From Candidatus Methylomirabilis oxygeniifera (GTDB taxonomy: Bacteria; Methylomirabilota; Methylomirabilia; Methylomirabilales; Methylomirabilaceae), in NCBI GenBank assembly GCA_000091165.1, contig FP565575.1, positions 2,310,001 through 2,342,000 of the forward strand: a stretch of 32,000 nucleotides of DNA, given 5' to 3'. Below are positions 775 to 23,157 of this stretch, piece by piece. The notes beneath the pieces were generated by a model. It ran no database searches. It was given only the letters and a program-made list of their open reading frames with translations, and was not told where the DNA came from. The position numbers and the translations under genes are program-made. Each line of letters opens with the position of its first letter. Positions within the stretch are counted from its first letter, which is position 1.

Positions 775-816
775 GCTGTCAGCGATCAGCCGTCAGCACG
801 CTGAACACTGAACACT
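775..816 (+). repeat. Heptanucleotide-periodic spacer: GCTGTCA GCGATCA GCCGTCA GCACGCT GAACACT GAACACT
   Basis: Read directly. Six consecutive 7-nt units lie between the ubiD stop and the redoxin RBS (GAGGAGG, 821-827). Confidence 0.8.
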
Positions 817-835
817 TGCTGAGGAGGTATCGGAT

Positions 836-1339
836 ATGAGTACTCTGTTGCGACGAATACGGTTCATTGTCTTTCTAATCGGTACACTACTCATCGCCCG
901 CGCAGTCCAGGCTGCGCCTGTTCCGGACTTTACGCTCCCGCTCCTGGATGGAAAGTCTGTCGCACTGAAGGACTTTCGCGGTAAGCCGGTTCTGATCAAC
1001 TTCTTCCACTCCAAATGACCCCACTGTCAACGGGAGGCTCCCGTTCTGGCAAAGATTTACCAGCAGTACAAGGGCAAAGGCCTCGTGATGCTGGGCGTGA
1101 ACGTCTTCCGAGATAACGAAGCCGATGCGCGAAGGTTTGTTGAGGAGTATAAGGTGCCGTACCCCGTTGGACACGACAGCACCGGCGAGATCGGCAGGCT
1201 GTATAAAATCGAAGGCACGCCGACCACCTTCCTGATTAATAAAGACGGCAGCTTATATGGACGCTCGGTCGGGGCCATGACAGAGGATGAGTTTCACACA
1301 TCTATTGATGCTCTGCTCAACCAGAAAGGAAAGCCGTAG
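836..1339 (+). CDS. TlpA/ResA-like periplasmic thiol:disulfide oxidoreductase (redoxin), putative selenoprotein with in-frame UGA at 1016-1018 (U-P-H-C in place of C-x-x-C)
   Basis: ORFs 836..1018 and 1085..1339 are in the same frame, with no stop other than TGA 1016-1018. The joined product reads ...PDFTLPLLDGKSVALKDFRGKPVLINFFHSK-U-PHCQREAPVLAKIYQQYKGKGLVMLGVNVF...YPVGHD...IEGTPTTFLINKDG, the classic TlpA layout, and the TGA falls on the first redox Cys. It has an N-terminal signal/anchor and a GAGGAGG RBS 8 nt upstream of ATG 836. Confidence 0.75.
1029..1045 (+). promoter_or_regulatory. SECIS-like hairpin downstream of UGA 1016-1018
   Basis: AACGGGA(1029-1035) GGC TCCCGTT(1039-1045) is a perfect 7-bp stem (or 6 bp with loop AGGCU). 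It starts 10 nt after the UGA, placing G/U-containing loop bases about 20-24 nt from the U of UGA, similar to the spacing in E. coli fdhF. Confidence 0.5.
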
Positions 1340-1363
1340 GTGATTCTGGTAAGGAGATATCAC

Positions 1364-1753
1364 ATGGGAAAGTCGATGGCGTCGATGATAACGGGGCTCG
1401 TGGTGGTGTTCGTCGCCGGGCTCTCTATCGGCTGGGCGCAGCAGGCCACGGTCACGCTCGTGTCGCCGAAGGATGGGGACACCATAGGTCCTCGTATGTT
1501 GATACAGTGGGAGTTCAAGCCGGCGGGAGATGTCAACCATATCCATCTCTACCTGGACGGGCTCAACCCGGGGCCACCGTTCGGGACCTCGATGGAACTC
1601 ACGGGCCTCCCGAACGGGCCGCACATCGTCAGGATCGTTGGGGCGAATACGCGCCACCAGGAGGTCGGACCTGAAGCCAGCGCGAAGGTGACGGTACATG
1701 GCGGAGCGCCGACCACGCCGCTACCGGCCCCCAGGCGGAGCCGCGCGTACTAG
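1364..1753 (+). CDS. Small secreted hypothetical protein (signal peptide; possibly DUF4399-like with HIHLYLDG and GPHIVRIVG motifs)
   Basis: AAGGAG RBS at 1351-1356, ATG at 1364. Hydrophobic N-terminus MGKSMASMITGLVVVFVAGLSIGWAQQ. The family assignment is from memory only. Confidence 0.65.
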   Translation: MGKSMASMITGLVVVFVAGLSIGWAQQATVTLVSPKDGDTIGPRMLIQWEFKPAGDVNHIHLYLDGLNPGPPFGTSMELTGLPNGPHIVRIVGANTRHQEVGPEASAKVTVHGGAPTTPLPAPRRSRAY

Positions 1754-1816
1754 TCGCGGGGCTCTGAGGGAAGCGGAGGACCGGCTGGCCGGTTCGGATC
1801 ATGGTCGCCCCGCGAC
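1753..1816. terminator. Perfect 10-bp inverted repeat (GTCGCGGGGC / GCCCCGCGAC) enclosing a nested ACCGG-CTGG-CCGGT hairpin, in a convergent intergenic region
   Basis: Arms at 1753-1762 and 1807-1816 were read directly. It lies between the plus-strand stop (1751-1753) and the parE stop (1849). There is no U-run, so terminator function is inferred. Confidence 0.4.
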
Positions 1817-1848
1817 CCTCCTGTCCCTGGCTAGCATCTCCGCGCGGT

Positions 1849-2163
1849 TCACTCGGCGCGCCCTCTCATCTGTTCTTCAGTCTCTCGCCGGAGGAGTCGG
1901 ATCGTCTCTTCATAGATGGTCCGACGGGGTCCGATCGCCACAAGGTCGATCGCTGCAGGCGTGATTCGGTAGATGACCCGAAGCCTCCCGACTCGCACAC
2001 TTCGCAGGCCCAGCAACTCTGCTTTCAGCGCCTTGCCGTGCTCCGGATCGAGCAGTATCGTCTCCAGAGCAGCCTTAACCTTCTTCTTGAGTTCCGGGTG
2101 GAGGTGTCTGAGCAAGGCGCGGACAGTATCAGGAGCCCGGAGTTTCCGAGACGGTGCGGCCAT
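1849..2163 (-). CDS. parE: Type II toxin, RelE/ParE family
   Basis: ...GKALKAELLGLRSVRVGRLRVIYRITPAAIDLVAIGPRRTIYEE is ParE-like. ATG 2163 sits directly after the antitoxin stop (2165-2167). The longer upstream ORF extension was rejected. Confidence 0.85.
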   Translation of the reverse strand: MAAPSRKLRAPDTVRALLRHLHPELKKKVKAALETILLDPEHGKALKAELLGLRSVRVGRLRVIYRITPAAIDLVAIGPRRTIYEETIRLLRRETEEQMRGRAE

Positions 2164-2164
2164 C

Positions 2165-2443
2165 TTATGCGCGGGTCGTACGCCGGGGCGTGAGCAACTC
2201 CTCGAGAGCGTACAGCCGCTTGGTCTTTGCAAGACCGCGGAGACCTCCTCGGATCTCCTCCATCAACTCAGTGTCCGTTCGGATCGCCACGGTCTCTTGC
2301 CAGCTCTCGGCCTCATCCGGGCTGATCAGCACAGCGGCCGGCTTGCCGTTCCGCGTGATGACGATCTGCTCGTCCCGCGAGTGAACCTCGTCGATGAGTC
2401 GGCTCAACTTCATTTTGACCTCGGATAGCGGGAGTGTCTTCAT
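2165..2443 (-). CDS. Type II antitoxin, Phd/YefM family
   Basis: MKTLPLSEVKMKLSRLIDEVHSRDEQIVITRNGKPAAVLISPDEAESWQET is a canonical Phd/YefM N-terminal domain. AGGAGGA RBS upstream. Confidence 0.9.
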   Translation of the reverse strand: MKTLPLSEVKMKLSRLIDEVHSRDEQIVITRNGKPAAVLISPDEAESWQETVAIRTDTELMEEIRGGLRGLAKTKRLYALEELLTPRRTTRA

Positions 2444-2483
2444 AGATTTGGTCCTCCTGTAGGTTGACCTTAATTCTGACTAG

Positions 2484-2513
2484 ATTGTTACGCGATGCTG
2501 GAGGCCTTGTCAA
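2484..2513 (-). promoter_or_regulatory. Candidate sigma70 promoter of phd-parE (TTGACA-N17-TAACAA)
   Basis: On the minus strand, TTGACA is at 2513-2508, followed by a 17-nt spacer and TAACAA(T) at 2490-2484, about 40 nt upstream of ATG 2443. Confidence 0.4.
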
Positions 2514-2567
2514 GATAAACACAGATGCCTGCGCGTTTCGGATAGTCGAAAGTAAGAGGTGAGAGGG

Positions 2568-3236
2568 TCAAGGCGTGCGAGATTTTGGCTGCTCCGCTCG
2601 GGCGATATGGTAGCTCAAGGTCTTGAGGAGGGCCGACAGGTCGACGTTCTGGACCTTCACCGAATCGGGGGCGGTCAGTTGAGCGGGGGCGAAATTCAAG
2701 ACCGCAATGACCCCGCCCTTCACGAGGGCGTCGAGGACAACCTGGGCGCCTGGGGCAGGAACGGCTAAGATCCCGATCTTAATCTTCCGCTTGCGGACAA
2801 CCGAGGCGATCGTCCCGGTATCCATCACCTGCAACCCGTCAATCCGTCGACCGATCTTGGCCGGGTCCCGATCAAATACGACAGAGATCTTAAATCCTTT
2901 CTCCTGGAATCCCCGATAGGCAATCAACGCAGAGCCCAGATTCCCCAACCCGACCAAGGCCACCTCCCACGCCCGCTTGAGGCCCAGAATCTCCTCCAGG
3001 CTATGCCGAAGGGGGGTCACGTAGTACCCCAGACCCCTGATGCCAAACTGGCCGAAGTAGGCCAGGTCCTTTCGCACTTGGGCGGAATTCAGGCCGAAAC
3101 GATCGGCCAGTTGCTTGGACGAGATGCTCATCGTCCCTTCATTCTCCAACTCTTCCACGCAACGCAGATAGATCGAAAGCCGGGTGACGGTCTTCTCGGG
3201 AATCTTGATCGCTTTCATGGATAGAGACCCTCTCAT
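2568..3236 (-). CDS. rex: Redox-sensing transcriptional repressor Rex
   Basis: KIPEKTVTRLSIYLRCVEELE...SSKQLADRFGLNSAQVRKDLAYFGQFGIRGLGYYV plus the Rossmann motif LVGLGNLG. ATG 3236 overlaps the nuoN1 stop (ATGA). An alternative ATG at 3218 has a GAGGG RBS 9 nt upstream. Confidence 0.92.
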   Translation of the reverse strand: MRGSLSMKAIKIPEKTVTRLSIYLRCVEELENEGTMSISSKQLADRFGLNSAQVRKDLAYFGQFGIRGLGYYVTPLRHSLEEILGLKRAWEVALVGLGNLGSALIAYRGFQEKGFKISVVFDRDPAKIGRRIDGLQVMDTGTIASVVRKRKIKIGILAVPAPGAQVVLDALVKGGVIAVLNFAPAQLTAPDSVKVQNVDLSALLKTLSYHIARAEQPKSRTP

Positions 3237-4735
3237 CCTGTAATGGCTGAGACCGACTGTCGTGCCAGATCGAGTAACCTCGACGGGAATAGGCCAAGGT
3301 GAAGGGTTCCCATCACAGACACCGCCACGGCCAGAACGGCCGCTGCGGATGCCTGGACAAGCGGTATCTGTCCTCGACTCTGATCGTGGGGCGGGGAGGT
3401 TGCCTCGCTCATATACATGATGACGATAACGCGGAGATAAAAGTAGACCGAGACCACGCTGTTCAGGACGCCGATCACTGCCAGGACCGGATAGTCGCCT
3501 TCAAGGGCGGCGCTGAAGATATACAGTTTACCCATGAAGCCGGCTGTCGGAGGGATCCCGGCCAGTGAGAACATGAAGACAGCCATGCAAGCGGCCAGGA
3601 CCGGACGCTGCCATCCGAGACCGGCGTAGTCGGTCAGCAACAGCCGCTCTCGCTCATGACCTTGCAACGCGATGATGACCGCGAAGACACCAAGGTTCAT
3701 CAGGGCGTAGGCAACCAGGTAGAAGAGGATGCCGGCAACTCCGGATGACCCACCGGCGACCAACGCAACCAACAGATACCCGGCATGCGCGATCGAGCTG
3801 TAGGCGAGCATCCGCTTGATGTTGCTTTGAACCAGGGCCACCAGATTACCTACGGTCATGGTGAGGACCGCCAGAACCCAGATCGCCACCAACCACTGCA
3901 CGTGAAGGGCAGGCAATGCCAGAAGAAATACTCGCAGGAAGGCGGCAAAGGCCGCCGCCTTGGTTCCGGCAATCATAAACGCTGTCACCGAGGTGGGCGC
4001 CCCCTCATATACGTCTGGGGCCCACATATGGAACGGGACAGAGGCGATCTTGAAGCCGAACCCAACCAGCAGCAACCCTCCCCCGATCAGGAACAGGGGC
4101 GCGGGGGGATGCCCATCAACCAGAAAGGCCGCAATCTGTCGAAGAACGGTCGTGCCGGTCGCCCCATAAATCAGGGCAATGCCATAGAGGAAAAAGCCGC
4201 TGGCAAAGGCCCCGAGCAGGAGGTACTTCAGCGCCGACTCGTTCGAGCGAAGCTCTGTCTTCCAGAACCCGGCAAGCGTGTACAGGGCGAGCGAGAAGGT
4301 TTCAAGCCCCAGAAAAATCACGATCAGGTCCCCCCCTGCAGCCATGAGCATCATCCCCAATACCGAGAAAAGCACCAGGCTGTAATACTCTCCCTGGTCG
4401 GCGGCTGCGGTGTCGAGATAGCCCATCGACAGCAGGACGGTCAATATGCCAATCGGGCCGAGCATGAGATAAAAGAAGAGTGAAAATCGGTCTAATACGA
4501 CCGCGTCATGAAGGCCGTAGCGAACCATTCCCTGATCCGGGTCGAGGACAGGTCCCCATGAACTGATCGATAGCAGGATCGACGCCGCGAGCGCGATCAG
4601 GCTCAGGATGGCGACGAGGTATTTCCGCCCTGGCGGGAGAAAGAGCTCTGCCACCAACGTCGTGAGACCTCCAAGGGCGACTGGTAAGAGCGGCGCAAAG
4701 GGAGCCCAGTCGATCTGAGGCAGCACAAGCTCCAT
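3233..4735 (-). CDS. nuoN: NADH-quinone oxidoreductase subunit N (cluster 1)
   Basis: About 500-aa polytopic antiporter-like protein with typical NuoN motifs (KRMLAYSSIAHAGY). ATG 4735 overlaps the nuoM1 stop by 1 nt (TGATG). Confidence 0.93.
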   Translation of the reverse strand: MELVLPQIDWAPFAPLLPVALGGLTTLVAELFLPPGRKYLVAILSLIALAASILLSISSWGPVLDPDQGMVRYGLHDAVVLDRFSLFFYLMLGPIGILTVLLSMGYLDTAAADQGEYYSLVLFSVLGMMLMAAGGDLIVIFLGLETFSLALYTLAGFWKTELRSNESALKYLLLGAFASGFFLYGIALIYGATGTTVLRQIAAFLVDGHPPAPLFLIGGGLLLVGFGFKIASVPFHMWAPDVYEGAPTSVTAFMIAGTKAAAFAAFLRVFLLALPALHVQWLVAIWVLAVLTMTVGNLVALVQSNIKRMLAYSSIAHAGYLLVALVAGGSSGVAGILFYLVAYALMNLGVFAVIIALQGHERERLLLTDYAGLGWQRPVLAACMAVFMFSLAGIPPTAGFMGKLYIFSAALEGDYPVLAVIGVLNSVVSVYFYLRVIVIMYMSEATSPPHDQSRGQIPLVQASAAAVLAVAVSVMGTLHLGLFPSRLLDLARQSVSAITG

Positions 4736-6354
4736 CAATTCGCGCTCCGCGTCTCAAAAACAGGGTATAGGGAGTCGGAGGTAGGGTATCGGATCACATA
4801 CGGGGAGACCTGTCCAACTCCGCCACCCTCCACCCTCCACCCGCCACCCTGCTTTTCGCACTCTGTGCTTCGCACTTCGCAGAGGAGCTGCGCAACCGAC
4901 GCATCCATCCTTCTAAGGAGAGGGTTCGGATTCAGACCGATCCATACAATGAGCAGGATGATCGGAATCAGCATCGCCATCTCGCGACCGCTGATATCAT
5001 CGAGTGTGAGATTCTCGGCCCGTCGGCTTTGCCCCCACATCACGCGTTGCCACATCCAGAGCATATAGACCGCCGCCAGAATGATACCAAGGGTCGCGAG
5101 TACCGCAAATCCTTTGTGGACGCGGAATGTCCCCGCCAGGATCAGGAACTCCCCCACAAACCCGTTCAGACCCGGCAGGCCAATAGAAGACATGGTCACA
5201 ACCAGGAAACAGAGCGCAAAGCGAGGGAGCACCCGCGAAAGTCCGCCGAACTCCTCTATCATTCTGGTATGGCGTCGCTCATAGATCATCCCAACCAGCA
5301 GGAAGAGGGCGCCGGTGGAGAGGCCATGGTTGACCATTTGGAGGATCGAGCCCTCCACGGACTGCACATTCATGGCGAAGATGCCCAGCATCACGAATCC
5401 CAGGTGACTCACGGAACTATAGGCCACCAGTCGCTTGAGATCATCCTGAACCATGGCAACCAGCGCGCCGTACAGGATGCCGATCACGGCCAGCGCAGAA
5501 ATCAATGGGGTAAACGCGATAGCCGCTTCCGGAAAGAGCGGAAGCGCGAATCGAAGGAATCCGTATGTTCCCATCTTCAAAAGAACCCCGGCCAACAGCA
5601 CGCTTCCCGCCGTCGGCGCCTCCACATGGGCGTCCGGTAACCATGTATGAAACGGAAACATCGGCACCTTGATGGCAAAGGCGAGCGCAAAGGCGGCGAA
5701 GAGCAGCAGTTGCGTCCCGTACGGGATCGGTCCGCCGATTAACTCCAGGAGGTCAAACGACAACCGACCCGTGCTTTCCCGATGCAGGAAGGCCAAGGCG
5801 ATCATCGCCAGCAGCATCAGGACGCTTCCCGCCATTGTATACAGAACGAACTTTACAGTGGCATAGACTCGCCGATGCCCGCCCCAGACCCCGATCAGGA
5901 AATACATCGGGATCAGCATCCCCTCCCAGAACACATAGAAGAGCACGAGATCCAGGGCAACGAATACGCCGATCATGCCGGTTTGAAGCAGCAGCACGCA
6001 GATCATGTATGCTTTCACCCGATTCGTAATCCCGGAGAAGGAGGCCAGGATCGCGATAGGCGTGAGAAAGGTCGTGAGGAGCAGCAGCGGCAGACTGATC
6101 CCATCCACGCCGAGAAAATAGCTGCTTCCGATCGAATCGATCCACGGCGCCCGCTCCACAAACTGCATGCCGGCCTCGGCCGGATCAAAGCGTACATACA
6201 CGATGAGAGAGAGTAGGAGGTTGAGGCCGGAGATGGCCACCGCGAGCCGCTTGATCAGCGCTTCTCGCATCCCATCGACACATGCGAGCAAAAGCGCGCC
6301 ACACAGCGGCAGGGCAATAAGTATTGAGAGGATCGGACCGCCCGCCTGACTCAT
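4735..6354 (-). CDS. nuoM: NADH-quinone oxidoreductase subunit M (cluster 1), with a non-conserved C-terminal tail encoded by heptamer repeats
   Basis: Motifs include FPFHTWLPDAHVEAPTAGSVLLAGVLLKMGTYG. The last ~48 codons (4738-4885) overlie the tandem heptamer arrays. Confidence 0.92.
   Translation of the reverse strand: MSQAGGPILSILIALPLCGALLLACVDGMREALIKRLAVAISGLNLLLSLIVYVRFDPAEAGMQFVERAPWIDSIGSSYFLGVDGISLPLLLLTTFLTPIAILASFSGITNRVKAYMICVLLLQTGMIGVFVALDLVLFYVFWEGMLIPMYFLIGVWGGHRRVYATVKFVLYTMAGSVLMLLAMIALAFLHRESTGRLSFDLLELIGGPIPYGTQLLLFAAFALAFAIKVPMFPFHTWLPDAHVEAPTAGSVLLAGVLLKMGTYGFLRFALPLFPEAAIAFTPLISALAVIGILYGALVAMVQDDLKRLVAYSSVSHLGFVMLGIFAMNVQSVEGSILQMVNHGLSTGALFLLVGMIYERRHTRMIEEFGGLSRVLPRFALCFLVVTMSSIGLPGLNGFVGEFLILAGTFRVHKGFAVLATLGIILAAVYMLWMWQRVMWGQSRRAENLTLDDISGREMAMLIPIILLIVWIGLNPNPLLRRMDASVAQLLCEVRSTECEKQGGGWRVEGGGVGQVSPYVIRYPTSDSLYPVFETRSAN
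4762..4882. repeat. About 17 consecutive heptamer units, including (CCACCCT)x4 at 4823-4850 and TTCGCAC-type x4 at 4855-4882
   Basis: Read directly: AGGGTAT AGGGAGT CGGAGGT AGGGTAT CGGATCA ... CCACCCT CCACCCT CCACCCG CCACCCT ... TTCGCAC TCTGTGC TTCGCAC TTCGCAG. Confidence 0.85.
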
Positions 6355-6369
6355 ATCATCCCCTGTGCC

Positions 6370-8262: not shown

Positions 8263-8268
8263 AGTTCA

Positions 8269-8322
8269 GGGTGTAGGGTGTAGGGTGTAGGGTAGTATGC
8301 TGAACACTTCACACTAAACACT
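8269..8322. repeat. (GGGTGTA)x3 plus a partial unit (8269-8294), followed by GAACACT TCACACT AAACACT (8302-8322), in the nuoK1-nuoL1 spacer
   Basis: Read directly. Four G3 tracts at 8269-8292 fit G3N4G3N4G3N4G3. Confidence 0.9.
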
Positions 8323-8327
8323 GGCCA

Positions 8328-8639: not shown

Positions 8640-8647
8640 ATCGCCTC

Positions 8648-8782
8648 GATGGTATGGACGGCAGTGCGCGAAGCGTCGTCGATGGCAGGCGAAGCATGGA
8701 CAGCGTAGCTTGCCATCGCCGATTCGAGCCGTACAGGGACGTACGGCGAGATTAAGCAGAGCACGCTGCCGTCCATACCATC
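8648..8782. repeat. 135-nt structured inverted-repeat element: 17-bp perfect outer stem enclosing two internal hairpins
   Basis: Outer arms: GATGGTATGGACGGCAG (8648-8664) and CTGCCGTCCATACCATC (8766-8782). Inner stem 1: CGATGGCAGGC (8680-8690) with GCTTGCCATCG (8708-8718). Inner stem 2: CCGTAC (8729-8734) with GTACGG (8741-8746). It occupies the 173-nt nuoJ1-nuoK1 gap, where the paralogous nuoJ2-nuoK2 gap is only 3 nt. Confidence 0.8.
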
Positions 8783-8812
8783 AACCTCGCATCTCGCGTA
8801 TGATATGAATAG

Positions 8813-9319: not shown

Positions 9320-9321
9320 CC

Positions 9322-11668: not shown

Positions 11669-11693
11669 GGGAGTTCAGCTATCAGCTTCTACC

Positions 11694-12221: not shown

Positions 12222-12237
12222 ATCACCTCAAAAGACG

Positions 12238-12315
12238 GGGTGTAGGTTTTAGGGGGTAGGGTACAATACGGGAACATTTGTCCGGTTCCCACACCCCACA
12301 CCCTCCACCCTGTCT
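12238..12315. repeat. G-rich heptamers (GGGTGTA GGTTTTA GGGGGTA GGGTACA), central hairpin GGGAAC-N9-GTTCCC (12270-12290), then C-rich heptamers (CCCACAC CCCACAC CCTCCAC) in inverted orientation
   Basis: Read directly in the 100-nt nuoD1-nuoE1 spacer. Confidence 0.85.
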
Positions 12316-12321
12316 TTTGTC

Positions 12322-14340: not shown

Positions 14341-14355
14341 CGCGTCCTTCTCCTT

Positions 14356-14390
14356 GGCGATCGGCTATCGCCCTCACGCCTACCCTCCGC
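14356..14390. repeat. Heptamer-periodic atpE-nuoA1 spacer (GGCGATC GGCTATC GCCCTCA CGCCTAC CCTCCGC), including the GGCGAT-CGGCT-ATCGCC hairpin
   Basis: Read directly. The hairpin at 14356-14372 sits just upstream (mRNA sense) of the nuoA1 RBS. Confidence 0.7.
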
Positions 14391-14770
14391 TATGCACCAG
14401 GTACCACGTACTTAATGAAGGGGTTCGCAAAGAAGATGATCAGAGCGACGAGCAAGACATAGATAGCCAGCGACTCGATGAGCGCGAGGCCGATGATCAT
14501 CGCCACCTGGATCTTCGGCGCTGCGGCCGGCTGCCGTCCCATCGCTTCCAGCGCGCTGACGATGGCTCGGCTCTGGCCGATAGCTGCCGCACCAGAGGCG
14601 ATCGCCATGGCAAATCCACCCGTAAGGACTGAGACGACAAAGAACATCGAACTACCCGATGTACCGGACGACTCAGCCGCAGCCCCTTCAGCGGCAAATG
14701 CCATCTGGGACCCAAATGTCAACATCACCGTGACCAACAGCAGCGCGAGCGCTCCTTGCGTACGACTCAT
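14390..14770 (-). CDS. atpE: F0F1 ATP synthase subunit c, with an N-terminal signal-peptide-like extension
   Basis: Core is GGFAMAIASGAAAIGQSRAIVSALEAMGRQPAAAPKIQVAMIIGLALIESLAIYVLLVALIIFFANPF. ATG 14770 is preceded by an AAGGAG RBS. The N-terminus MSRTQGALALLLVTVMLTFGSQMAFA-AE resembles a Sec signal. Confidence 0.92.
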   Translation of the reverse strand: MSRTQGALALLLVTVMLTFGSQMAFAAEGAAAESSGTSGSSMFFVVSVLTGGFAMAIASGAAAIGQSRAIVSALEAMGRQPAAAPKIQVAMIIGLALIESLAIYVLLVALIIFFANPFIKYVVPGA

Positions 14771-14808
14771 CGGTACAACTCCTTTCAAAATGAAGAATGA
14801 AGATAGGG

Positions 14809-15528
14809 TTAGTGGTGCTCCTCGTGTTCGACGTGAACGGCTCCGGCAATATAGACCATGGAAAGCATGACAAAGATGAAGGCCTGGACAAAACTGGTGA
14901 AGAGGCTCAGGGGCATCATGATACCCAGATAGATGATATACGGAATACCTAACCAGATCAGCGACAGCAGGATGGCGATAACGCTTTCTTCCCCAAAAAT
15001 GTTGCCGAACAACCGGATCGATAGAGAGATCGGCCGGGCGAGATGGCCGATCAGCTCAATGGGAAACATGATGGGCGCCAACCACAGGATCGGTCCGCAG
15101 AAATGACGGAGATAGGCCGCGATCCCCTGTTCCCGTATACCGAAATAGTTATAGGAGAGGAATATGGTGATGGCGAGAGCGGCCGTCGTGTTGAGATTGG
15201 CCGTCGGGGGCTTGAGACCGGGAAACGCGCCCAAAAGATTCCCGACGAGGATGAAGAGACCAGCCGTCCCGATCAAAGGGAGGTACCGTTTCCCGTTGTG
15301 TCCGATCATCTGCGTGAGCAGGTCCGTAAACGTCTCGACCACAACCTCCATGAAGTTCTGGACCGGCCCCGGCACCGCCTGGAGCTGCCGCGTCGCCAGA
15401 TACGACACAATAATCAGAATCGCCATGACCAGCCATGCCATCGCGATATGCTCCGGTATCCAGGCCCCAGGAATCCCGATCGCCCCAAGAAAATTTGGAA
15501 TCTGAAAGACTGTAGGGTGATGCTCCAT
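14809..15528 (-). CDS. atpB: F0F1 ATP synthase subunit a
   Basis: Contains the LSIRLFGNIFGEE stator-arginine motif. GGGAGG RBS 4 nt upstream of ATG 15528. Confidence 0.93.
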   Translation of the reverse strand: MEHHPTVFQIPNFLGAIGIPGAWIPEHIAMAWLVMAILIIVSYLATRQLQAVPGPVQNFMEVVVETFTDLLTQMIGHNGKRYLPLIGTAGLFILVGNLLGAFPGLKPPTANLNTTAALAITIFLSYNYFGIREQGIAAYLRHFCGPILWLAPIMFPIELIGHLARPISLSIRLFGNIFGEESVIAILLSLIWLGIPYIIYLGIMMPLSLFTSFVQAFIFVMLSMVYIAGAVHVEHEEHH

Positions 15529-15577
15529 CACGCCTCCCGATTGTTGTACGGGAAATCACATACAGACCGCAAGAAAA

Positions 15578-15793: not shown

Positions 15794-15873
15794 GTTCCCG
15801 CCTATAAAACCCCCGCTCACCCGCCTTTATCAAAGGGGGGAAGGGGGCCTTCCCTCCTGCTGTGTTCGACCCT

Positions 15874-15902: not shown

Positions 15903-15923
15903 GGTTCACCGACCTCCTGAATT

Positions 15924-17375
15924 CTACCAGAGCCCGGCGACCGAGGCCCTGGCTAACTCCAGAAACGGGCCGGGGTAGATGCCGATAGCGATGGTGGCGA
16001 CCAGGGTTACGAACAGCGCCAGCCGCAACGGTGCAGAAGAGCTCAGGGTCAGGCCCTGTGGCGGCAGGTCCCGCATATACATCGCCACCACCACCTTCAT
16101 GTAGTAGAAGAGCGAAATGGCTGAATTGATGACGGCAATGATCGCAAGCCAGACATACCCTCGTTCGATAGCGGCGCCGAACAGATAGAACTTCCCAACG
16201 AAGCCGGCGGTCGGCGGAACTCCCGCCAATGAAAGGAGGAAGATTAACATGACGGCGGCCGCCATCGGACTGCGCTGCGCCAGGCCGGTGAAGTCGTCAA
16301 TGCGCTCCCCTTTCACCTCTCCTACGCAGAGCAGGATGACCATGGCAAAGGCGCCCAGTGTCATCATGGCGTAGATCAGGGTATACAGCAACACGGCTGA
16401 GATCCCCAGCTCCCGTCCCGCCACCAACCCGATCAGCAGGTACCCGATGTGCGCGATCGAGCTGTAGGCGAGCATTCGCTTGACATTGCTCTGCGCGATT
16501 GCCACAACATTGCCGATGGTCATCGTGAGCAACGACAAGACATAAAAGAGAAGCGTCCAGCGATCCTGCAGGCCCGGAATGGCCACCAGAAAGACCCGCA
16601 TGAGAATGGCGAGACCAGCAACCTCTGAAGCGGCCGATAGAAGAGCCGCCACAGGGGTCGGAGCGCCCTCATACACATCAGGGATATACATGTGGAACGG
16701 GACCGCCGCGATCTTGAATCCGAATCCGGCGACCAGCATCACCATGCCCAGGATAAGCGCAGGATTCGAGGCGGTGTCCGCTGAGATCATTGAGGCGATC
16801 TCTCTCAGGCCGATAGTACCGGTCAGGCCATACAACATGACGATGCCGTACAGCATAATCGCAGAAGAAAATCCACCCATCAGCAGATACTTCAGGGCGG
16901 CTTCGCTGCTGCGTCGTTCCCGCTTCATAAAACCGGCCAGAATATATATAGAAATCGACATCATCTCCAGGCCGATATACAGGATCAGGAGATCGACGGC
17001 GCTAACCATCAGCATCATGCCGAGCGTGGCGAAGAGGATGAGAGGGTAGAACTCGCCCTTGTCGATCCGTTCGCTCTTCAGGTAGCCGATCGACATCAGC
17101 AGGATCAGCGCGGCAGAGACCAGAAATACGATCTTAAAGAAGAATGCGAACGGATCGCTGATATATTGCCCGCTGAAGGCGGACTGCGTCACCCCCCATT
17201 GGCGGATCAGGACGATGAAGGTGCCAAGGACGCCAACGATGCTCAGATATCCCAGCCAGTCTCGTCCGCCTTTAGGGGCGATAAAATCGAGCGCAAGGAT
17301 CCCCATAGCCACGAGGCTCAGGATCACCTCCGGCGAGGTTGTGGAGAGATCGGCCATGTTGAATACTTGAGTCAT
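15924..17375 (-). CDS. nuoN: NADH-quinone oxidoreductase subunit N (cluster 2)
   Basis: 483 aa. Contains KRMLAYSSIAHIGY. The start overlaps the nuoM2 stop (ATGA). Confidence 0.93.
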   Translation of the reverse strand: MTQVFNMADLSTTSPEVILSLVAMGILALDFIAPKGGRDWLGYLSIVGVLGTFIVLIRQWGVTQSAFSGQYISDPFAFFFKIVFLVSAALILLMSIGYLKSERIDKGEFYPLILFATLGMMLMVSAVDLLILYIGLEMMSISIYILAGFMKRERRSSEAALKYLLMGGFSSAIMLYGIVMLYGLTGTIGLREIASMISADTASNPALILGMVMLVAGFGFKIAAVPFHMYIPDVYEGAPTPVAALLSAASEVAGLAILMRVFLVAIPGLQDRWTLLFYVLSLLTMTIGNVVAIAQSNVKRMLAYSSIAHIGYLLIGLVAGRELGISAVLLYTLIYAMMTLGAFAMVILLCVGEVKGERIDDFTGLAQRSPMAAAVMLIFLLSLAGVPPTAGFVGKFYLFGAAIERGYVWLAIIAVINSAISLFYYMKVVVAMYMRDLPPQGLTLSSSAPLRLALFVTLVATIAIGIYPGPFLELARASVAGLW

Positions 17376-19036
17376 CGAGATCCTTCGACGTGGCTGGCCG
17401 CAGATCCCTTGACGGGGAGGACTGACCCCTCGTGACCGGGCTCAGGGGCGACTTCGACCTGGCCTGCGGCGGGCGGTGTCGACTCGCTCAGGTACGGTTC
17501 GGTAGTCGTGACCGTTTTATGCACCCGCGCCAGAACATAATTGACCGACGCCTCTGTCCGACTCAGAAAGGGAGAGGGGTAGAGACCGATCCAGAAACAC
17601 ATAATCACGATCGGCACAAGGGTCGTCAGCTCCCTGGCGCTCAGATCGGGAAGATTCGCATTCTTGGGGTTCTCCAGCGCCCCGAACATGGTCCGCTGAA
17701 AGAGCCACAGCATATAGGCCGCGCCGAGTACGATTCCGGTCACGGCAAAGGCAGCATAGACATAATTGACCTTGAACGCGCCGACCAGAATCAAAAACTC
17801 TCCGATGAAGCCGTTCAGTCCGGGGAGCCCCATCGAAGAAAACATGATGATCGCAAAGAGGGTCGAGTAGACCGGCATCTGCTTGGATAAGCCCCCAAAC
17901 TCCGAGATCTGCCTCGTATGTCGGCGATCATAGATCAGACCCACGATCAGGAAGAGCGCGCCGGTTGAAAGGCCGTGGTTGATCATCTGGATAATGGCGC
18001 CCTGAACTCCCTGGAAATTCAGGGCGAACATGCCCAACATCACAAACCCCATGTGGCTGACGGAGCTGTAGGCGATCAGTCGCTTCATGTCGGTCTGGAC
18101 CATACAGACCAACGCGCCGTAAATAATCGCGATGATCGACAGGGTCATAATCATCGGAACAAAGTGTTGGGTGGCCTCCGGAAGCATCGGCAGGTTGAAC
18201 CGGATGAAGCCGTATGTTCCCATCTTCAGAAGGACACCGGCCAGAATGACGCTGCCGGCCGTCGGGGCATCGGTGTGCGCGTCAGGCAGCCAGGTATGGA
18301 AGGGAAACATCGGAACCTTGATGGCGAAGCCCAAAAAGAAGGCCAGCCAGACCAGATCCTGAAACGACAACGGGATGCCCAGCAGCGTTACAACAGGAGT
18401 CGATGGATACGACACCTTCATCAACTCAAAAATATCAAACGTGTAGGTTCCCGTCTCGGCGCCGTGATAGAAGTAGACGGCAAGGATCCCCAGCAGCATG
18501 ATGACGCCGCCGAACAGCGTATACAGAAAGAACTTGATGGCCGAATACAGGCGGCGATCGCTTCCCCAGATACCGATCAGGAAATACATCGGGACCAGCA
18601 TCACTTCCCAAAAGATGTAGAAGAGAAAGAAGTCCATCGAGAAAAAGACCCCGAGCATTCCGGTCTCCAGCATCAGCATGAAGGCATAATACTCCTTCAA
18701 CCTCATGCTCACCGATTCCCATGAACAGACGACCGTAATAACGGAAAGGGACGTGGTCAACATGACCAGCCACAGGGTGATCCCGTCGAGACCGAAAAAG
18801 TAGGTTACACCAATCGAGGGAATCCAGGAGACCTTCTCCACAAACTGCATCTCCGCAGTCGTCGAGTCGAAGTAGGCCGGGATCCAGAGGGACACCAGGA
18901 GGTCGGCTACTGTGAAGGCCAGGGCGGTCCAGCGGATGCCGTTTTTCGACTCCTTCGGGAGCAGCGCGAGCACGACCATCCCGACGAGGGGCAGATACGT
19001 CATCAGAGATAAGATGGGAAACTCAAGAGCATTCAT
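17372..19036 (-). CDS. nuoM: NADH-quinone oxidoreductase subunit M (cluster 2)
   Basis: 554 aa. Contains FPFHTWLPDAHTDAPTAGSVILAGVLLKMGTYG. Has a ~45-aa non-conserved C-terminal tail. Confidence 0.93.
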   Translation of the reverse strand: MNALEFPILSLMTYLPLVGMVVLALLPKESKNGIRWTALAFTVADLLVSLWIPAYFDSTTAEMQFVEKVSWIPSIGVTYFFGLDGITLWLVMLTTSLSVITVVCSWESVSMRLKEYYAFMLMLETGMLGVFFSMDFFLFYIFWEVMLVPMYFLIGIWGSDRRLYSAIKFFLYTLFGGVIMLLGILAVYFYHGAETGTYTFDIFELMKVSYPSTPVVTLLGIPLSFQDLVWLAFFLGFAIKVPMFPFHTWLPDAHTDAPTAGSVILAGVLLKMGTYGFIRFNLPMLPEATQHFVPMIMTLSIIAIIYGALVCMVQTDMKRLIAYSSVSHMGFVMLGMFALNFQGVQGAIIQMINHGLSTGALFLIVGLIYDRRHTRQISEFGGLSKQMPVYSTLFAIIMFSSMGLPGLNGFIGEFLILVGAFKVNYVYAAFAVTGIVLGAAYMLWLFQRTMFGALENPKNANLPDLSARELTTLVPIVIMCFWIGLYPSPFLSRTEASVNYVLARVHKTVTTTEPYLSESTPPAAGQVEVAPEPGHEGSVLPVKGSAASHVEGSR

Positions 19037-19120
19037 ATGAACCGCAAACCTCCTGTCTCGGGTCCGACTATCGCCTCCAACACCCAGCCTTCAGCCACAA
19101 CGCTACGTTCCATTTCCTGT

Positions 19121-19148
19121 TGACTGCTGATAGCCGTCGGCCAATCGC
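19121..19148. repeat. Heptamers TGACTGC TGATAGC CGTCGGC CAATCGC (reverse-complement family of GCNNTCA at 775-795)
   Basis: Read directly, immediately downstream (mRNA sense) of the nuoL2 stop, within the 112-nt nuoL2-nuoM2 spacer. Confidence 0.75.
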
Positions 19149-21185
19149 TCATAAAAACAGATAGAACACCACCATGCCGACGATGCCAAGCGCCATGGCC
19201 AGAATGTAGTTCTGAATTGCTCCTGTCTGCAGCCTTCGCAGAGTGAAGCTTCCACCTTGAATCAGATCGGCGATAGCGTTGACCAGGCCATCAACAATCT
19301 TCATATCGTGCCAGGACGAGATCGCACTCAGCCGCATGGTCAGCCAGCTACTGCCGTTGACGGCGCCGTCCACCACCTTGGCGTCAACACCCCAGAGGAA
19401 GCCGCAGAAGCGCTTGCCAAAATGGATGAAGATCGCTTCGTATAGCTCATCGACCCAATACTTGTTCAGTAACAGATTGTAGAAACCGCGCAGCTTGTCC
19501 GCCAGCGCCGTGGGTATATCCGGCCGTTTGACGTAGAACAGATAGGCGAGGCCGATCCCAGCCAGCGCAACTGCCAGCGAGACCGCGGCCATAACAAGCT
19601 CGGATGCGCCCGCCGCATGCCCGGCGGCCGCCGCCACCACATGCTCGGTACCCCCTTCCATCGCATGCTCGGCGGCCTCGCCGACACCATGCCCGACAGC
19701 CGCCTCTGATCCGTGGGCGACCTCAAAGATCGGCGCGACGAATTTGTGATAGAGCCCGTGATCTGGAGGGAACCCTAACGCCGCGCCCGCAATTACCGAA
19801 AGGACGCCGAGCACCAGCAACGGATACGCCATGTTCGGCGGCGATTCGTGCAGGTGATGGGCGGTATGGTGGTCACCGCGAAAATGCCCGGTGAAAACCT
19901 GGAAGAACAGCCTGAACATATAGAAAGCCGTCAGGAAGGCGCCGATCAGCCCTAAAAGCCAGGGGATCGTGAGGCCACGCACAAAGGCATTGAATAGAAT
20001 CTCATCCTTGGACCAGAAACCCGCCAGAGGGAAGATCCCGGCGTTCGCCAGCGAGGCCAGCAGGAAGGTCCAGGTGGTAATCGGCATCGCCTTCCGCAGT
20101 CCGCCCATCTTTCTCATGTCCTGCTCGCCATGCAATGAGTGAATGACCGAGCCGCAGCCAAGAAACAGGAGCGCCTTGAAGAAGGCATGCGTCCCGAGGT
20201 GAAATACCGCGGATGGGTAGGCGCCGGCCCCGGCGCCCAGAAACATGTAGCCGAGCTGGGAGATCGTAGAGTAGGCCACAACCCGCTTGATGTCGTTCTG
20301 AACCAGTGCGATGGTGGCCGCGAAGACGGCCGTCAGCGCACCGACCCAGGCCACTACTTCGAGGCTGAACGGGGCCAGATTGAACAGGGCGTTCGACCGG
20401 GCCACCATATAGACGCCCGCCGTCACCATTGTGGCGGCATGGATCAATGCGGAGACCGGTGTGGGCCCTTCCATGGCGTCGGGAAGCCAGACATACAGCG
20501 GAAGCTGGGCCGACTTGCCCGTCGCGCCCACGAACAGCAGCAGCGTGATGGTCGTGTAGATCCCGGCGCCCAGCGTGGGATCGATCGCCGCAAATACTTC
20601 GGTATACTTCAGCGACCCGAAGGTGGTCCAGATAAAGAAGAGTCCGAGGATAAATCCGGCGTCGCCGATTCGGTTGACGACAAACGCCTTCTTGCCGGCG
20701 TCCCCTGCCGATTTTTTCTCATACCAGAAGCCGATCAGCAGATACGAGCAGAGCCCGACACCCTCCCACCCCAGGAACATCAGCAGGTAGTTGTTGGCCA
20801 GCACCAGCATCAGCATCGAGAACATGAACAGATTGAGGTAAGTAAAGAAGCGGGCATAGCCCCGATCACCGTGCATATAGCCGATCGAGTAAACATGGAT
20901 GAGGAACCCGACGAACGTAACCACCAGCATCATGACGGTGGAAAGCGGGTCGACCAGGAACCCGATCGGTACCTTGAGGTCGCCGACGTTCAGCCACGGA
21001 TAGACGTCCCAGTCGAGCGTCGCGCCACCCAGCGTCTGAAAGAACACGACAAACGCCACAAGGCACGACAGCCCCGCAGCCGGGACCGCGATCAGATGGG
21101 CCCGCTCCTTGATCCAGGCGCCGAACAGCCCATTGATCAGGACGCCGATCAGCGGCAGCAACGGTACAAGCGCAACCAGCTTCAT
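19149..21185 (-). CDS. nuoL: NADH-quinone oxidoreductase subunit L (cluster 2)
   Basis: 678 aa. Contains GWEGVGLCSYLLIGFWY and SAQLPLYVWLPDAMEGPTPVSALIHAATMVTAGVY. Confidence 0.95.
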   Translation of the reverse strand: MKLVALVPLLPLIGVLINGLFGAWIKERAHLIAVPAAGLSCLVAFVVFFQTLGGATLDWDVYPWLNVGDLKVPIGFLVDPLSTVMMLVVTFVGFLIHVYSIGYMHGDRGYARFFTYLNLFMFSMLMLVLANNYLLMFLGWEGVGLCSYLLIGFWYEKKSAGDAGKKAFVVNRIGDAGFILGLFFIWTTFGSLKYTEVFAAIDPTLGAGIYTTITLLLFVGATGKSAQLPLYVWLPDAMEGPTPVSALIHAATMVTAGVYMVARSNALFNLAPFSLEVVAWVGALTAVFAATIALVQNDIKRVVAYSTISQLGYMFLGAGAGAYPSAVFHLGTHAFFKALLFLGCGSVIHSLHGEQDMRKMGGLRKAMPITTWTFLLASLANAGIFPLAGFWSKDEILFNAFVRGLTIPWLLGLIGAFLTAFYMFRLFFQVFTGHFRGDHHTAHHLHESPPNMAYPLLVLGVLSVIAGAALGFPPDHGLYHKFVAPIFEVAHGSEAAVGHGVGEAAEHAMEGGTEHVVAAAAGHAAGASELVMAAVSLAVALAGIGLAYLFYVKRPDIPTALADKLRGFYNLLLNKYWVDELYEAIFIHFGKRFCGFLWGVDAKVVDGAVNGSSWLTMRLSAISSWHDMKIVDGLVNAIADLIQGGSFTLRRLQTGAIQNYILAMALGIVGMVVFYLFL

Positions 21186-21187
21186 GC

Positions 21188-21222
21188 GAGTGTTGAGTGT
21201 TGAGTGTTGAGTGTTGAGTGTC
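21188..21222. repeat. (GAGTGTT)x4 perfect plus one imperfect unit, in the nuoK2-nuoL2 spacer
   Basis: Read directly. The mRNA-sense complement (AACACTC)n contains no G. Confidence 0.92.
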
Positions 21223-21237
21223 TGAAACGGATCATAC

Positions 21238-21546
21238 TTACCATTTCATCAGATTGATTTCGTCGACGTTGATGGTCTGAAAGTTTCGGTACAGCCCGAG
21301 GACGATCGCCAGCCCCACCGCGGCCTCGGCTGCCGCCACAGTAATGACAAAGATAGCAAAGATCTGCCCCTGCATGAGCGCCTGGGGCAGATATCTGGAA
21401 AATGCCACAAAATTCAGATTGACCGCATTGAACATCAGCTCCAACGCCATCAGTATGCCGACGGCATTGCGACGGGTCAGGGCCCCAAACATCCCGATGC
21501 CAAACAATATCACGCTAAGAATCAGATAGTACGACAGCGGCACCAT
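21238..21546 (-). CDS. nuoK: NADH-quinone oxidoreductase subunit K (cluster 2)
   Basis: 102 aa. Contains [12 protein letters not shown] and [11 protein letters not shown]. Confidence 0.95.
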
Positions 21547-21549
21547 CCG

Positions 21550-22062
21550 TCAGTCCTTCCCCCGTTCGCGTCGAGCCAGAATAATTGCGCCCACCATGGC
21601 CGCCAGCAGAAGAAGCGATACCACCTCAAACGGCAGGACGTAGGTGGTCAGCAGGAGCTTCCCGATCGAGGCGGTGTTATCCGCCATCGTCAGGGGCGGC
21701 ACCATGGCGGGAAAGCCTTTCAGGTTGGCATAGGCCAGGAGCCCGACGATCGCGAGGACCACCACCGCGGAGATCCCCACCTGCTCGTTCATAATCTTGA
21801 CCCCGCCGGCCGAGATCCGACTGGTCAACATGATCGCGAACAGCAGGAGGATGGTAATCCCTCCCACGTACAGCAGCACCTGCGCGGCCGCCAGAAATTC
21901 GGCGTCAAGCAGGACAAACAGCGCGGCAACGCCGAAGAAGGCAAAGACCAATGCGATGGCGCAATGCACGATGTTTTTGGCCAGGACCACCAGCAGAGAG
22001 GCTCCCACCGTGAAGGCCGCCATCAGGAAAAATACAACGTGAGTCACAGTCACAAGCGCCAC
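21550..22062 (-). CDS. nuoJ: NADH-quinone oxidoreductase subunit J (cluster 2)
   Basis: Contains LAKNIVHCAIALVFAFFGVAALFVLLDAEFLAAAQVLLYVGGI. GTG start at 22062. An alternative GTG at 22053 is better spaced from the GGGGAG RBS. Confidence 0.88.
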   Translation of the reverse strand: MALVTVTHVVFFLMAAFTVGASLLVVLAKNIVHCAIALVFAFFGVAALFVLLDAEFLAAAQVLLYVGGITILLLFAIMLTSRISAGGVKIMNEQVGISAVVVLAIVGLLAYANLKGFPAMVPPLTMADNTASIGKLLLTTYVLPFEVVSLLLLAAMVGAIILARRERGKD

Positions 22063-22071
22063 TCCCCAGTA

Positions 22072-23080
22072 CTAAGAATCTTTTAACACCAGGATCAATC
22101 CGGTAATCCCCATATTCAGCAAGGCCAGCGGCAGTAGGAACTTCCATCCCAGATTCATGAGTTGATCGACCCGCAGTCTGGCTAACGTCCAGCGCAGCCA
22201 CATCATGACGAAAATAAATGAAATAGGTCTTCAGCAGGAACCAGAGCCACCCCGGCAGCAGCGGCCCGTGCCACCCGCCGAGAAACAGCGTGGTGGCGAT
22301 GGCAGAGACCACGAACATATTGGCGTACTCCGCCAGAAAGAATATGGCAAACCGCATCCCGCTGTACTCAACATGAAAACCGGCCACCAGCTCCGACTCG
22401 GCCTCCGGGATGTCAAACGGCGTCCGGTTGCATTCGGCGATCGCCGCCGTCAGATAGATCAGGAAGCCAAGCAGTTGCGGAACCACAAACCACATCCCCT
22501 CCTGCGCCTCTACAATCCGGGTCATGCTCATCGAGCCGACCGTCATGATGACCCCGATCACCGAGAGCACAAGAGGAACTTCGTAGCTGACCGCCTGAGC
22601 CGCTGAGCGGATGGCGCCCAGAACCGAATATTTATTATTGGAGCTCCAGCCGGCCATAATGATCCCCACGACCGTCAGAGAGGAGATCGAAATATAGAAG
22701 AGGACGCCGATGTTCAGGTCGCCCGCGATAAGGCCCGGACCGAACGGAATAATTACAAACGCGGCAAGCGAGGCCGCAAAGACCACCATCGGCGCCAGGG
22801 CAAATACCAGTCGGTCGGCTCCAGCCGGGATGATATCCTCCTTGAGGAGGAGCTTGAGTCCATCGGCGATACTCTGGGCCCAGCCGTGCCAGCCGCCGAC
22901 CCGCATCGGCCCAAAGCGGACCTGGATGTGGGCACTGATTTTCCGCTCCCACCAGACCATAAACATCACGGAGACGGCGGTGAAGATGAGAACAGCCGTG
23001 GCCACCGCCAGCATCACGATCAACTGGGCGACCGTAAGGGGTAGACCCCACTCACTTAAGATGTCGTAAACAGGCTCCAT
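22072..23080 (-). pseudogene. nuoH: NADH-quinone oxidoreductase subunit H (cluster 2), interrupted by a 1-nt frameshift at about 22210-22214
   Basis: Frame 0 gives a normal NuoH up to ...[11 protein letters not shown], then nonsense that overlaps nuoJ2 as far as 21905. Skipping one nt (TAT TTT C|GTC) restores [45 protein letters not shown]-stop (TAG 22072-22074). This aligns without gaps to the NuoH1 C-terminus ([24 protein letters not shown]). Confidence 0.85.
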
Positions 23081-23103
23081 CAATCTTCCGTAAGAGAAAA
23101 TAA

Positions 23104-23157
23104 GTTGTTAGTTTTACGTTTTTAGTTTCGTTACTCAGAACTCAACACTAAACACCG
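23104..23157. repeat. Heptamers GTTGTTA GTTTTAC GTTTTTA GTTTCGT (23104-23131) followed by an ACACTAAACAC motif shared with 8311-8321
   Basis: Read directly in the 87-nt nuoD2-nuoH2 spacer. The 11-mer ACACTAAACAC occurs at 23145-23155 and at 8311-8321. Confidence 0.8.

Follow-up and report, generated by a model that had tools for sequence, protein, structure and literature searches.

The spacers between many genes of two complex I (nuo) operons in the methane-oxidizing bacterium Candidatus Methylomirabilis oxygeniifera are occupied by tandem arrays of 7-nt units. These arrays were analyzed starting from a 32,000-nucleotide stretch of the chromosome (C1:2310001-2342000 of contig FP565575.1, hereafter the window), which belongs to a single-contig genome of 2,752,854 bp with a G+C content of 58.6%. 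The heptamer elements are real and genome-wide, mostly form hairpins, and are enriched between co-directional genes. They are probably best understood as dispersed, fast-evolving hairpin elements built from heptanucleotide repeats, similar to the STRR (short tandemly repeated repetitive) sequences of cyanobacteria and limited to the Methylomirabilis order, with an origin and a turnover at the level of DNA and with copies that remain wherever they do no harm.

The initial annotation, made from the letters of the window alone, had proposed a family of heptamer repeats in operon spacers, and the genome as a whole bears this out. Period-7 arrays number 317 in the genome and 56-58 in two fifth-order Markov simulations, a non-random 5.5-fold excess due to arrays that are spread through the genome and not confined to this locus; no comparable excess over the simulations exists for periods 8, 10 or 11. 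Three phased identical 5-mers occur 693 times in the genome at period 7 versus 4-64 times at the other periods in the range 5-12. The arrays comprise 124 canonical units with three main cores, and the cores ranking highest by triple-phased count are TCAGC/GCTGA (109), AGGGT/ACCCT (75) and AGTGT/ACACT (24). A universal 'AG' phase was considered and dropped, as AG/CT occurs in 85% of units and CA/TG in 74%, a modest gap.

Location is equally skewed. Non-coding sequence makes up 57% of period-7 array length versus 12% of the genome, by the authors' own crude gene models, which were used for all spacer and orientation counts (genome-wide these yield ~1690 co-directional, ~180 divergent and ~180 convergent neighbor pairs). 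The suspected concentration in intra-operon spacers is also found: among spacers of 40-400 nt, the share with an array is 13-16% where the neighboring genes are co-directional and 3-5% where they converge or diverge, a 4-6-fold difference in frequency (Fisher p 0.001-0.01).

The arrays follow a recurrent design: 3-5 units, a 10-40-nt loop and a run of complementary units, in that order. A typical copy reads from the stop codon through an A-run (often present), 3-5 G/T-rich units, an element-specific loop, 3-5 A/C-rich units and a T-run (again often present) to the Shine-Dalgarno sequence (SD) and start codon. A reverse-complement partner array (at least 12/14 matches) lies within 150 nt of 67 of the 317 arrays, versus 1-4 in reverse-only or complement-only controls, and the folding z-score against shuffles has a median of -2.29 in array spacers (51% below -2) versus -0.16 in array-free spacers of the same length (18%). 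Units had been noted to recur in both orientations, which is correct and arises because the arrays are the two arms of hairpins, a pairing that had not been recognized. The order of the arms is fixed: the G/T-rich arm is the 5' arm whichever strand is read (binomial p ~4e-6), with 5' arm core counts of 30 for AGGGT versus 1 for ACCCT, 29 for TCAGC versus 10 for GCTGA, and 9 for AGTGT versus 0 for ACACT. On any transcript, therefore, the G/T-rich arm adjoins the upstream stop codon and the A/C-rich arm adjoins the downstream start.

Selection acting at the RNA level would be expected to leave a strand asymmetry, and it was ruled against on this ground. In array spacers the sense and antisense strands are the more stable in 65 and 59 cases, respectively (p 0.37, no difference); in array-free spacers the sense strand folds more stably (p 2e-4). 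Units are oriented equally both ways relative to transcription, and the composition of solo arrays is not skewed toward the sense strand (44 vs 52). The elements thus appear to have taken shape as palindromic DNA and not through refinement of a single strand of the transcript, which argues for an origin at the DNA rather than the RNA level. Origin and spread would then proceed by 7-nt-register slippage, by copying templated on hairpins and, now and then, by duplication to new sites, and copies would survive wherever the insert is tolerated, either in intercistronic spacers or in frame at gene ends. Once transcribed they may serve as intercistronic stem-loops that are at most modulatory, affecting transcript stability, providing a structured spacer, or setting the proximity of stop and start codons, and they would not be sequence-specific regulators of particular genes.

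Almost all genes of the window lie on the minus strand, and the following are relevant here:

14340 down to 3233, minus strand: complex I operon 1, nuoA-C-D-E-F-H-J-K-L-M-N, with rex next.
14390-15531, minus strand: genes for the ATP-synthase a and c subunits.
~25000 down to 15924, minus strand: complex I operon 2, without NuoE/F, nuoB/D-H-J-K-L-M-N.
19-768, plus strand: ubiD, 3' part.

The sites of interest in and around these genes are:

S1, 775..823, plus strand: downstream of ubiD; left arm GCTGTCA GCGATCA GCCGTCA (TCAGCNN family).
S2, 4755..4882, minus strand: in frame inside the 3' end of nuoM of operon 1; the open reading frame (ORF) at 4735-6354 reads through the element.
S3, 8268..8322, minus strand: nuoK1-nuoL1 spacer; 3.7 copies of AGGGTGT at 8268-8293 (100% by Tandem Repeats Finder, TRF).
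11674..11689, minus strand: two TCAGCNN units (TCAGCTA TCAGCTT) in the nuoE-nuoF spacer, absent from the initial annotation.
S4, 12230..12319, minus strand: nuoD-nuoE spacer; G-rich arm 12237-12262, loop, C-rich arm 12288-12311.
S5, 14356..14372, minus strand: atpE-nuoA spacer (14341-14389); small palindrome GGCGATAGCCGATCGCC on the mRNA strand, then AAGGAGAAGG.
S6, 14789..14803, minus strand: atpB-atpE spacer; a single ~8-nt duplication, AATGAAG twice (TRF array 14789-14803).
S7, 19085..19135, minus strand: nuoL2-nuoM2 spacer; degenerate TCAGC arm 19085-19096 and GCTGA arm 19123-19135.
S8, 21188..21221, minus strand: solo array of 4.9 copies of GAGTGTT (TRF 100%; AACACTC on the mRNA).
S9, 23103..23158, minus strand: nuoD2-nuoH2 spacer; decayed AGTTTNN / NNAAACT hairpin; weak TRF array at 23103-23128 (73%).

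At the nine sites first listed the sequences are as written there, and TRF reports period-7 arrays at seven of them, but three are weak members: the site at 14356-14390 is a conserved palindrome, that at 14789-14802 a single duplication, and that at 19121-19148 two degenerate units. The S5 palindrome is not a member of any array family and is kept in all 10 genus genomes compared; being conserved, unlike the heptamer elements, it is a candidate regulatory or processing site. The S6 duplication of the window genome (G000) is also present in two close relatives, G010 and GCA_900465445.1, and the atpB-atpE spacer measures 38 nt in these three; the seven remaining genomes of the genus in the comparison lack the duplication and have a spacer of 30-31 nt. 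S7 has orthologues in G010 and G019 with the same arms on either side of a 100-nt insert, and at the S9 junction clear AGTTTNN-type arrays are present in G018, G007, G009 and G010. The nuoE-nuoF spacer of relatives has 2-3 GCTGANN units at the same place. In S1 the left arm is followed on the right side by GCTGAACACTGAACACTTGCTGA and then the SD GAGGAGG (TRF array 801-816; fold dG -16 to -20 kcal/mol). An 11-mer, ACACTAAACAC, is indeed present at both 8311-8321 and 23145-23155, and Rfam gives no match at gathering score in the window.

In S4 the order is CAAAAGAC, G-rich arm, loop, C-rich arm and GTCTTTTG, followed on the mRNA strand by the SD GAGGTGAT (TRF array 12288-12303; fold z -4.3 sense and -5.3 antisense). 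S2 and S4 both form long hairpins that lie between AAAAG(A)C and G(T)CTTTT, a layout shared by many AGGGT-type copies, and a G+C-rich hairpin between an upstream A-run and a downstream T-run is what an intrinsic, possibly bidirectional, terminator or attenuator would look like; the A content of the upstream flanks (0.34-0.40 vs 0.21) points the same way. Such a role is nonetheless very unlikely, for the operons that house the elements encode obligate complex I subunits, convergent spacers, the expected place for terminators, are depleted of them, an A-run of at least 4 is present in 11% only, enrichment of A/T-runs in the flanks is weak overall, and a U-run follows only a subset. A scan for consensus terminators found 19 sites versus 12.6 expected, none of them a full element, and S8 and other solo arrays do not fold (dG -2.3 for S8).

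S3 folds more weakly than S2 or S4; after a short loop its second arm reads GAACACT TCACACT AAACACT at 8302-8322, so placed that on the mRNA strand the A/C-rich arm adjoins the nuoL1 ATG without an SD. S8 likewise ends 2 nt before the nuoL2 ATG, also without an SD. The first arm of S3, (AGGGTGT)n, fits the pattern G3N4G3N4G3N4G3, and the G-rich heptamers of Xanthomonas and Nostoc form G-quadruplex (G4) structures in vitro (PMC4692102), from which regulatory G-quadruplexes might be supposed here as well. Only one family is G3-rich, however; TCAGCNN, the largest, cannot form G4, and the G-rich arms are paired with C-rich ones. The related idea that the arrays are contingency loci, in which slippage toggles expression, is met by the fact that the genes concerned have a housekeeping role in respiration and do not belong to the surface or virulence class. 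It is met further by same-strain assemblies, in which the slippage polymorphism that the initial annotation had proposed to look for between strains is not seen: where flanks are 100% or 99.98% identical, S3 is identical in 9 assemblies and S8 in 3, with no difference in unit number, these being consensus assemblies of which several have contigs that end inside arrays. We consider it highly improbable that the arrays are either contingency loci or regulatory G-quadruplexes. In assemblies L121, L122, L126 and L128-L133 many contigs end inside arrays S8 and S2, and the called NuoM products are 487-510 aa long; the elements thus break short-read assemblies and truncate called NuoM products.

For comparison with relatives, in which G numbers other than G000 designate species representatives (many of them fragmented), the compared set passes from same-strain assemblies directly to a relative at ~93% nucleotide identity, with no genomes of intermediate divergence. 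Every one of the 19 other species genomes of the genus has three tandem TCAGCNN units, as do 5 of 6 other families of the order, with ~0 for a reversed control pattern; for four tandem units, 108 genomes from elsewhere in the class give about 0. Within the genus the unit repertoires vary strongly, as shown by triple-phased hits per genome on both strands:

G000 (window genome): TCAGCNN 109, AGGGTNN 75, AGTTTNN 1, GTGCGNN 2.
G008: TCAGCNN 91, AGGGTNN 33, AGTTTNN 0, GTGCGNN 178.
G011: TCAGCNN 108, AGGGTNN 72, AGTTTNN 35, GTGCGNN 2.
G018: TCAGCNN 116, AGGGTNN 45, AGTTTNN 31, GTGCGNN 0.
G007: TCAGCNN 24, AGGGTNN 3, AGTTTNN 1, GTGCGNN 2.

Because the same unit occurs at so many sites of one genome, independent slippage at each locus cannot explain these repertoires; particular units are dispersed or favored by something, lineage by lineage. 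In G008, the genome with the GTGCGNN burst, the last nuoM1 codons themselves lie in GTGCGNN-like units, and the nuoK2-nuoL2 spacer (174 nt) has three successive GTGCGNN blocks and a CGCACCC arm.

That something might be an active, order-specific machinery able to read or write nucleic acid in register with a 7-nt unit, the arrays being its footprint. Candidates could be a templated activity that adds repeats or carries out repair, or a protein whose binding or polymerization follows the TCAGCNN and AGGGTNN units. The idea rests on the cores being kept order-wide despite turnover of the loci, on unit bursts in single species, on the G/T-rich 5' arm, and on the preference for gaps between co-transcribed genes; even so it is rather unlikely. 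If it were true, the hairpins would be a built-in control of operon expression (coupling, stabilization, Rho-proofing) and not passengers.

Turnover is evident when the syntenic 22-kb region is taken from 9-16 genus genomes and every intergenic junction is extracted. Some junctions are cold, being an overlap or 2-15 nt in every species (nuoA-C, C-D, H1-J1, L1-M1, H2-J2, J2-K2 and M2-N2), and atpB-atpE and atpE-nuoA are conserved ordinary spacers; junctions without an element in any species number eight to nine. Others are hot, with an occupant that varies by species (nuoD-E, F-H1, J1-K1, K1-L1, M1-N1, D2-H2, K2-L2, L2-M2 and N2-orfX), which can be one of the heptamer families, a G/C-run hairpin of the ccccccTTTATCAAAgggggg type, an element (GTCATTCC...GGAATGAC) resembling a miniature inverted-repeat transposable element (MITE), or nothing. 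The junctions that are hot in one of the two paralogous nuo operons only partly match those in the other, which speaks against a role bound to given subunits. S8 is absent from the closest species, G010, where the spacer is 13 nt, and other species hold other families at nuoK2-L2. Even GCA_900465445.1 (~93% identity, with identical NuoK1 and NuoK2) carries unrelated elements at K1-L1, J1-K1, K2-L2 and D2-H2. Orthologous junctions compared in this way show gain, loss or replacement of elements, with units that are homogenized within an arm and two arms that change together. At nuoK1-L1, where the arrays of several species are judged orthologous because they start right after TAG, the arms are built of TTTCGAG/GAAACCC in G010 and G011 versus TTCCGAG/GGAACCC in another species; the pattern is one of concerted evolution inside each arm and compensatory change between the two, with one mismatch per unit kept in both.

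The in-frame copy in nuoM shows what an insert can look like inside a gene. On the plus strand S2 consists of an AGGGTAT-type arm at 4762-4789, a loop at 4790-4821 and an arm of four CCACCCT units at 4822-4850 (TRF 4823-4850), past which lie GCTTTT and then TTCGCAC-type units to 4882. As a result nuoM1 in the window exceeds its counterparts in G007 and G008 by 102 nt (34 codons), and it still has the RSAN* end and overlaps nuoN by TGATG. The insert-free genes end in ...SEVRSAN* (G007) and, with different nucleotides, in ...SEVRGVK* (G008), and the stop/start overlap of nuoM1 and nuoN1 is TGATG in G000, G007 and G011 and TAATG in G008. At the S2 spot G011 has an 18-codon in-frame G/C-run hairpin. 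Stop-free inserts with lengths in multiples of three are what a tolerance filter would leave as survivors where translational coupling must stay.

S2 is shared with GCA_900465445.1, where it has the same length and a conserved loop but arms that are ~18% diverged. The loop motif GGACA(N5-7)CCCGTAT occurs in the genome in S2 and S4 only, and the two elements align over arms and loop. In three relatives (G006, G019 and GCA_900465445.1) the S4 site at nuoD-nuoE is empty, with an ATGA overlap, so that the simplest origin for S4 is duplication of an S2-like element located 7.5 kb from it.

Such pairs are rare. Classical MITEs were considered and rejected because most copies have unique loops and no recognizable target-site duplication, S2 and S4 being a rare paralogous pair. 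Masked array spacers match other spacers in 27% of cases versus 26% for array-free ones, thus without excess, and in loop-versus-loop alignment 7 of 76 exceed the 99th percentile of shuffles, a comparison to which short loops give little power. Between filled and empty sites no recognizable target-site duplication flanks the heptamer elements; a GGTGC direct repeat flanks the G/C-run hairpin in G011 nuoM1. Elements that are small, intergenic and palindromic, with hundreds of copies, in a genome with three Y1_Tnp genes, might equally be repetitive extragenic palindromes (REPs) mobilized by a REP-associated tyrosine transposase (RAYT). This explanation and that of MITEs are largely refuted and scarcely credible: arrays do not flank any of the three Y1_Tnp genes, which are of the IS200 or RAYT type, the array-rich genomes G008 (178 GTGCGNN) and G009 are without Y1_Tnp at 94-99% completeness, and the elements have no conserved GTAG head and no shared internal sequence.

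A stronger competitor, although a less probable one than tolerated DNA-level turnover, is that the hairpins are functional cis-elements of polycistronic mRNAs, which stabilize upstream cistrons, act as Rho- or RNase-proof spacers, or couple stop to start, with a clade-specific protein recognizing the cores. The enrichment in co-directional spacers fits this possibility, as does the fact that the hairpin usually fills the whole spacer, from a few nucleotides after the stop to the SD or start. In both operons, moreover, nuoL has an A/C-rich arm adjoining its ATG in place of an SD, while the element-free G007 has GGGAGG there; the cores are kept across the order with compensatory change of the two arms; and like roles have been proposed for STRR hairpins (PMC2670836) and TAACTGA repeats (PMC4679880). 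Such cis-elements comport poorly, however, with the lack of a sense-strand stability advantage and of unit strand bias, with orthologous junctions in close relatives that are empty or hold unrelated elements, and with the different junctions occupied in the paralogous nuo operons.

Several observations weigh against regarding the elements simply as hairpins that arise at the DNA level and are tolerated. The loops are mostly unique, hence copy-and-paste of whole elements is documented for few pairs only, and no target-site duplication or mobilizing enzyme was found. Near-identical assemblies lack the copy-number variation that would betray ongoing slippage. The preference for co-directional spacers and depletion from convergent ones, unlike purely selfish palindromes such as REPs, hint at a role in polycistronic transcripts, and order-wide 5-nt cores with free NN positions, together with the fixed polarity, suggest that something reads or writes the sequence. 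It is the co-directional preference, the fixed polarity, the order-wide cores and the SD-less nuoL starts at A/C-rich arms that keep a functional or machinery-based explanation alive.

STRR heptanucleotides of heterocystous cyanobacteria were reportedly described by Mazel et al. in 1990, with units said to be CCCCAGT (STRR1), TTGGTCA (STRR2) and CAACAGT (STRR3). The window is not cyanobacterial, as had been supposed from its gene content: the host is Methylomirabilis_oxyfera (NC10/Methylomirabilota), and the closest relatives of its NuoF outside the group are from Acidobacteriota and others, at no more than 63% identity. Tandem copies of STRR1-3 (units as given above, on either strand) and of TAACTGA, GGGAATC and GGGGAYT number zero in the genome.

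The supposed likeness to STRRs therefore holds in form (tandem 7-bp units in several families, scattered copies that lie mainly between genes transcribed together, a capacity for hairpin formation, and tolerance inside genes) but not in sequence, the published units being absent in tandem. Cyanobacterial STRRs include hairpin-forming 7-bp repeats between hupS and hupL that possibly affect transcript stability or translational coupling (PMC2670836), and STRRs also lie inside the RNase P RNA gene (Vioque 1997, as cited in PMC2858038). The Methylomirabilis elements belong to another phylum and have other units, with a 5-nt core and NN degeneracy, and inverted pairs with fixed polarity are the rule. 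Nor are heptamers a feature of heterocystous cyanobacteria only: GGGAATC is described in Xanthomonas and GGGGAYT in Nostoc (PMC4692102), TAACTGA in Beggiatoaceae (PMC4679880), and heptanucleotides are the most abundant long simple-repeat class in many bacteria according to Mrazek 2007, as cited in PMC4679880 and PMC4692102. In the sense of that work (7-nt repeats above compositional expectation and mainly non-coding), the Methylomirabilis arrays qualify.

They share with the Xanthomonas and Nostoc heptamers (PMC4692102) an intergenic excess, some inverted pairs, strong variation between close relatives and a proposed slippage origin, but where those genomes have one dominant G-rich unit each, here there are at least 3 superfamilies, of which the largest, TCAGCNN, is not G-rich, and repertoires vary within the genus. 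TAACTGA repeats, known from marine Beggiatoaceae, some cyanobacteria and Bacteroidetes, are sets of 2-6 heptamers directly upstream of starts, often without a canonical ribosome-binding site (PMC4679880); S3 and S8 resemble them, also in being scattered over unrelated genes. TAACTGA is one exact unit, inverted in 1 of 170 sets and cross-phylum (PMC4679880), whereas the Methylomirabilis units are degenerate, mostly in inverted pairs, and found in one order only. With REPs, bacterial interspersed mosaic elements (BIMEs) and their RAYTs the elements share hundreds of short imperfect palindromes in intergenic regions, intra-operon spacers included; they differ by the missing GTAG head and Y1 transposase link, by arms of tandem units, and by depletion from convergent spacers. 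Hairpin elements of organelles such as sponge mitochondria (PMC2800124) also form small families that repeatedly invade intergenic regions, but in another genetic system and, in the portion of that source available, without mention of a 7-nt period. The Methylomirabilis elements, judged by their units and their host, are outside all named heptamer families (STRR, Xanthomonas/Nostoc and Beggiatoaceae), and no paper linking Methylomirabilis to such repeats was found in the literature searched.

Other features of the window were observed in passing. The nuoJ1-nuoK1 spacer (8640-8812) holds a ~150-nt palindromic element that is not built from heptamers, with a 19-bp perfect outer stem (GATGGTATGGACGGCAG...) and a fold z of ~-6; at least 6 further copies exist at 83-89% identity (e.g., at 1321275, 1488515, 516005 and 59572), and relatives carry other elements at this spacer. 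A second dispersed hairpin family consists of G and C runs around TTTATCAAA or TTTGATAAA (cccccc-TTTATCAAA-gggggg) and is found at 15800-15870 on the minus strand and in relatives' spacers; the copy at 15800-15870 overlaps the called 5' part of a 124-aa ORF without a Pfam hit, upstream of atpB. Downstream of rex, at 1849-2443 on the minus strand, public gene calls for an identical record place an antitoxin-toxin pair (PhdYeFM, 92 aa; ParE, 104 aa), where the ~93%-identity relative carries different genes. The nuoH2 ORF (22059-23083) extends ~40-50 codons past the end of all orthologues and overlaps nuoJ2 by ~150 nt; orthologues have a 6-9-nt spacer, and a frame or stop difference in the window, or an over-long call, is possible.

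For annotation the elements have practical effects, in that ORFs are extended or shifted (nuoM by 34 codons), starts are over-called, and assemblies break at the elements. More broadly, heptamer repeats have been known in cyanobacteria since 1990, and the Methylomirabilis order provides a compact system in which to address the reason for a 7-nt unit, the way in which arrays spread and whether they act, with genomes of 2-3 Mb, dozens of species genomes, clear species-specific units, fixed arm polarity, and both filled and empty orthologous sites within essential operons.

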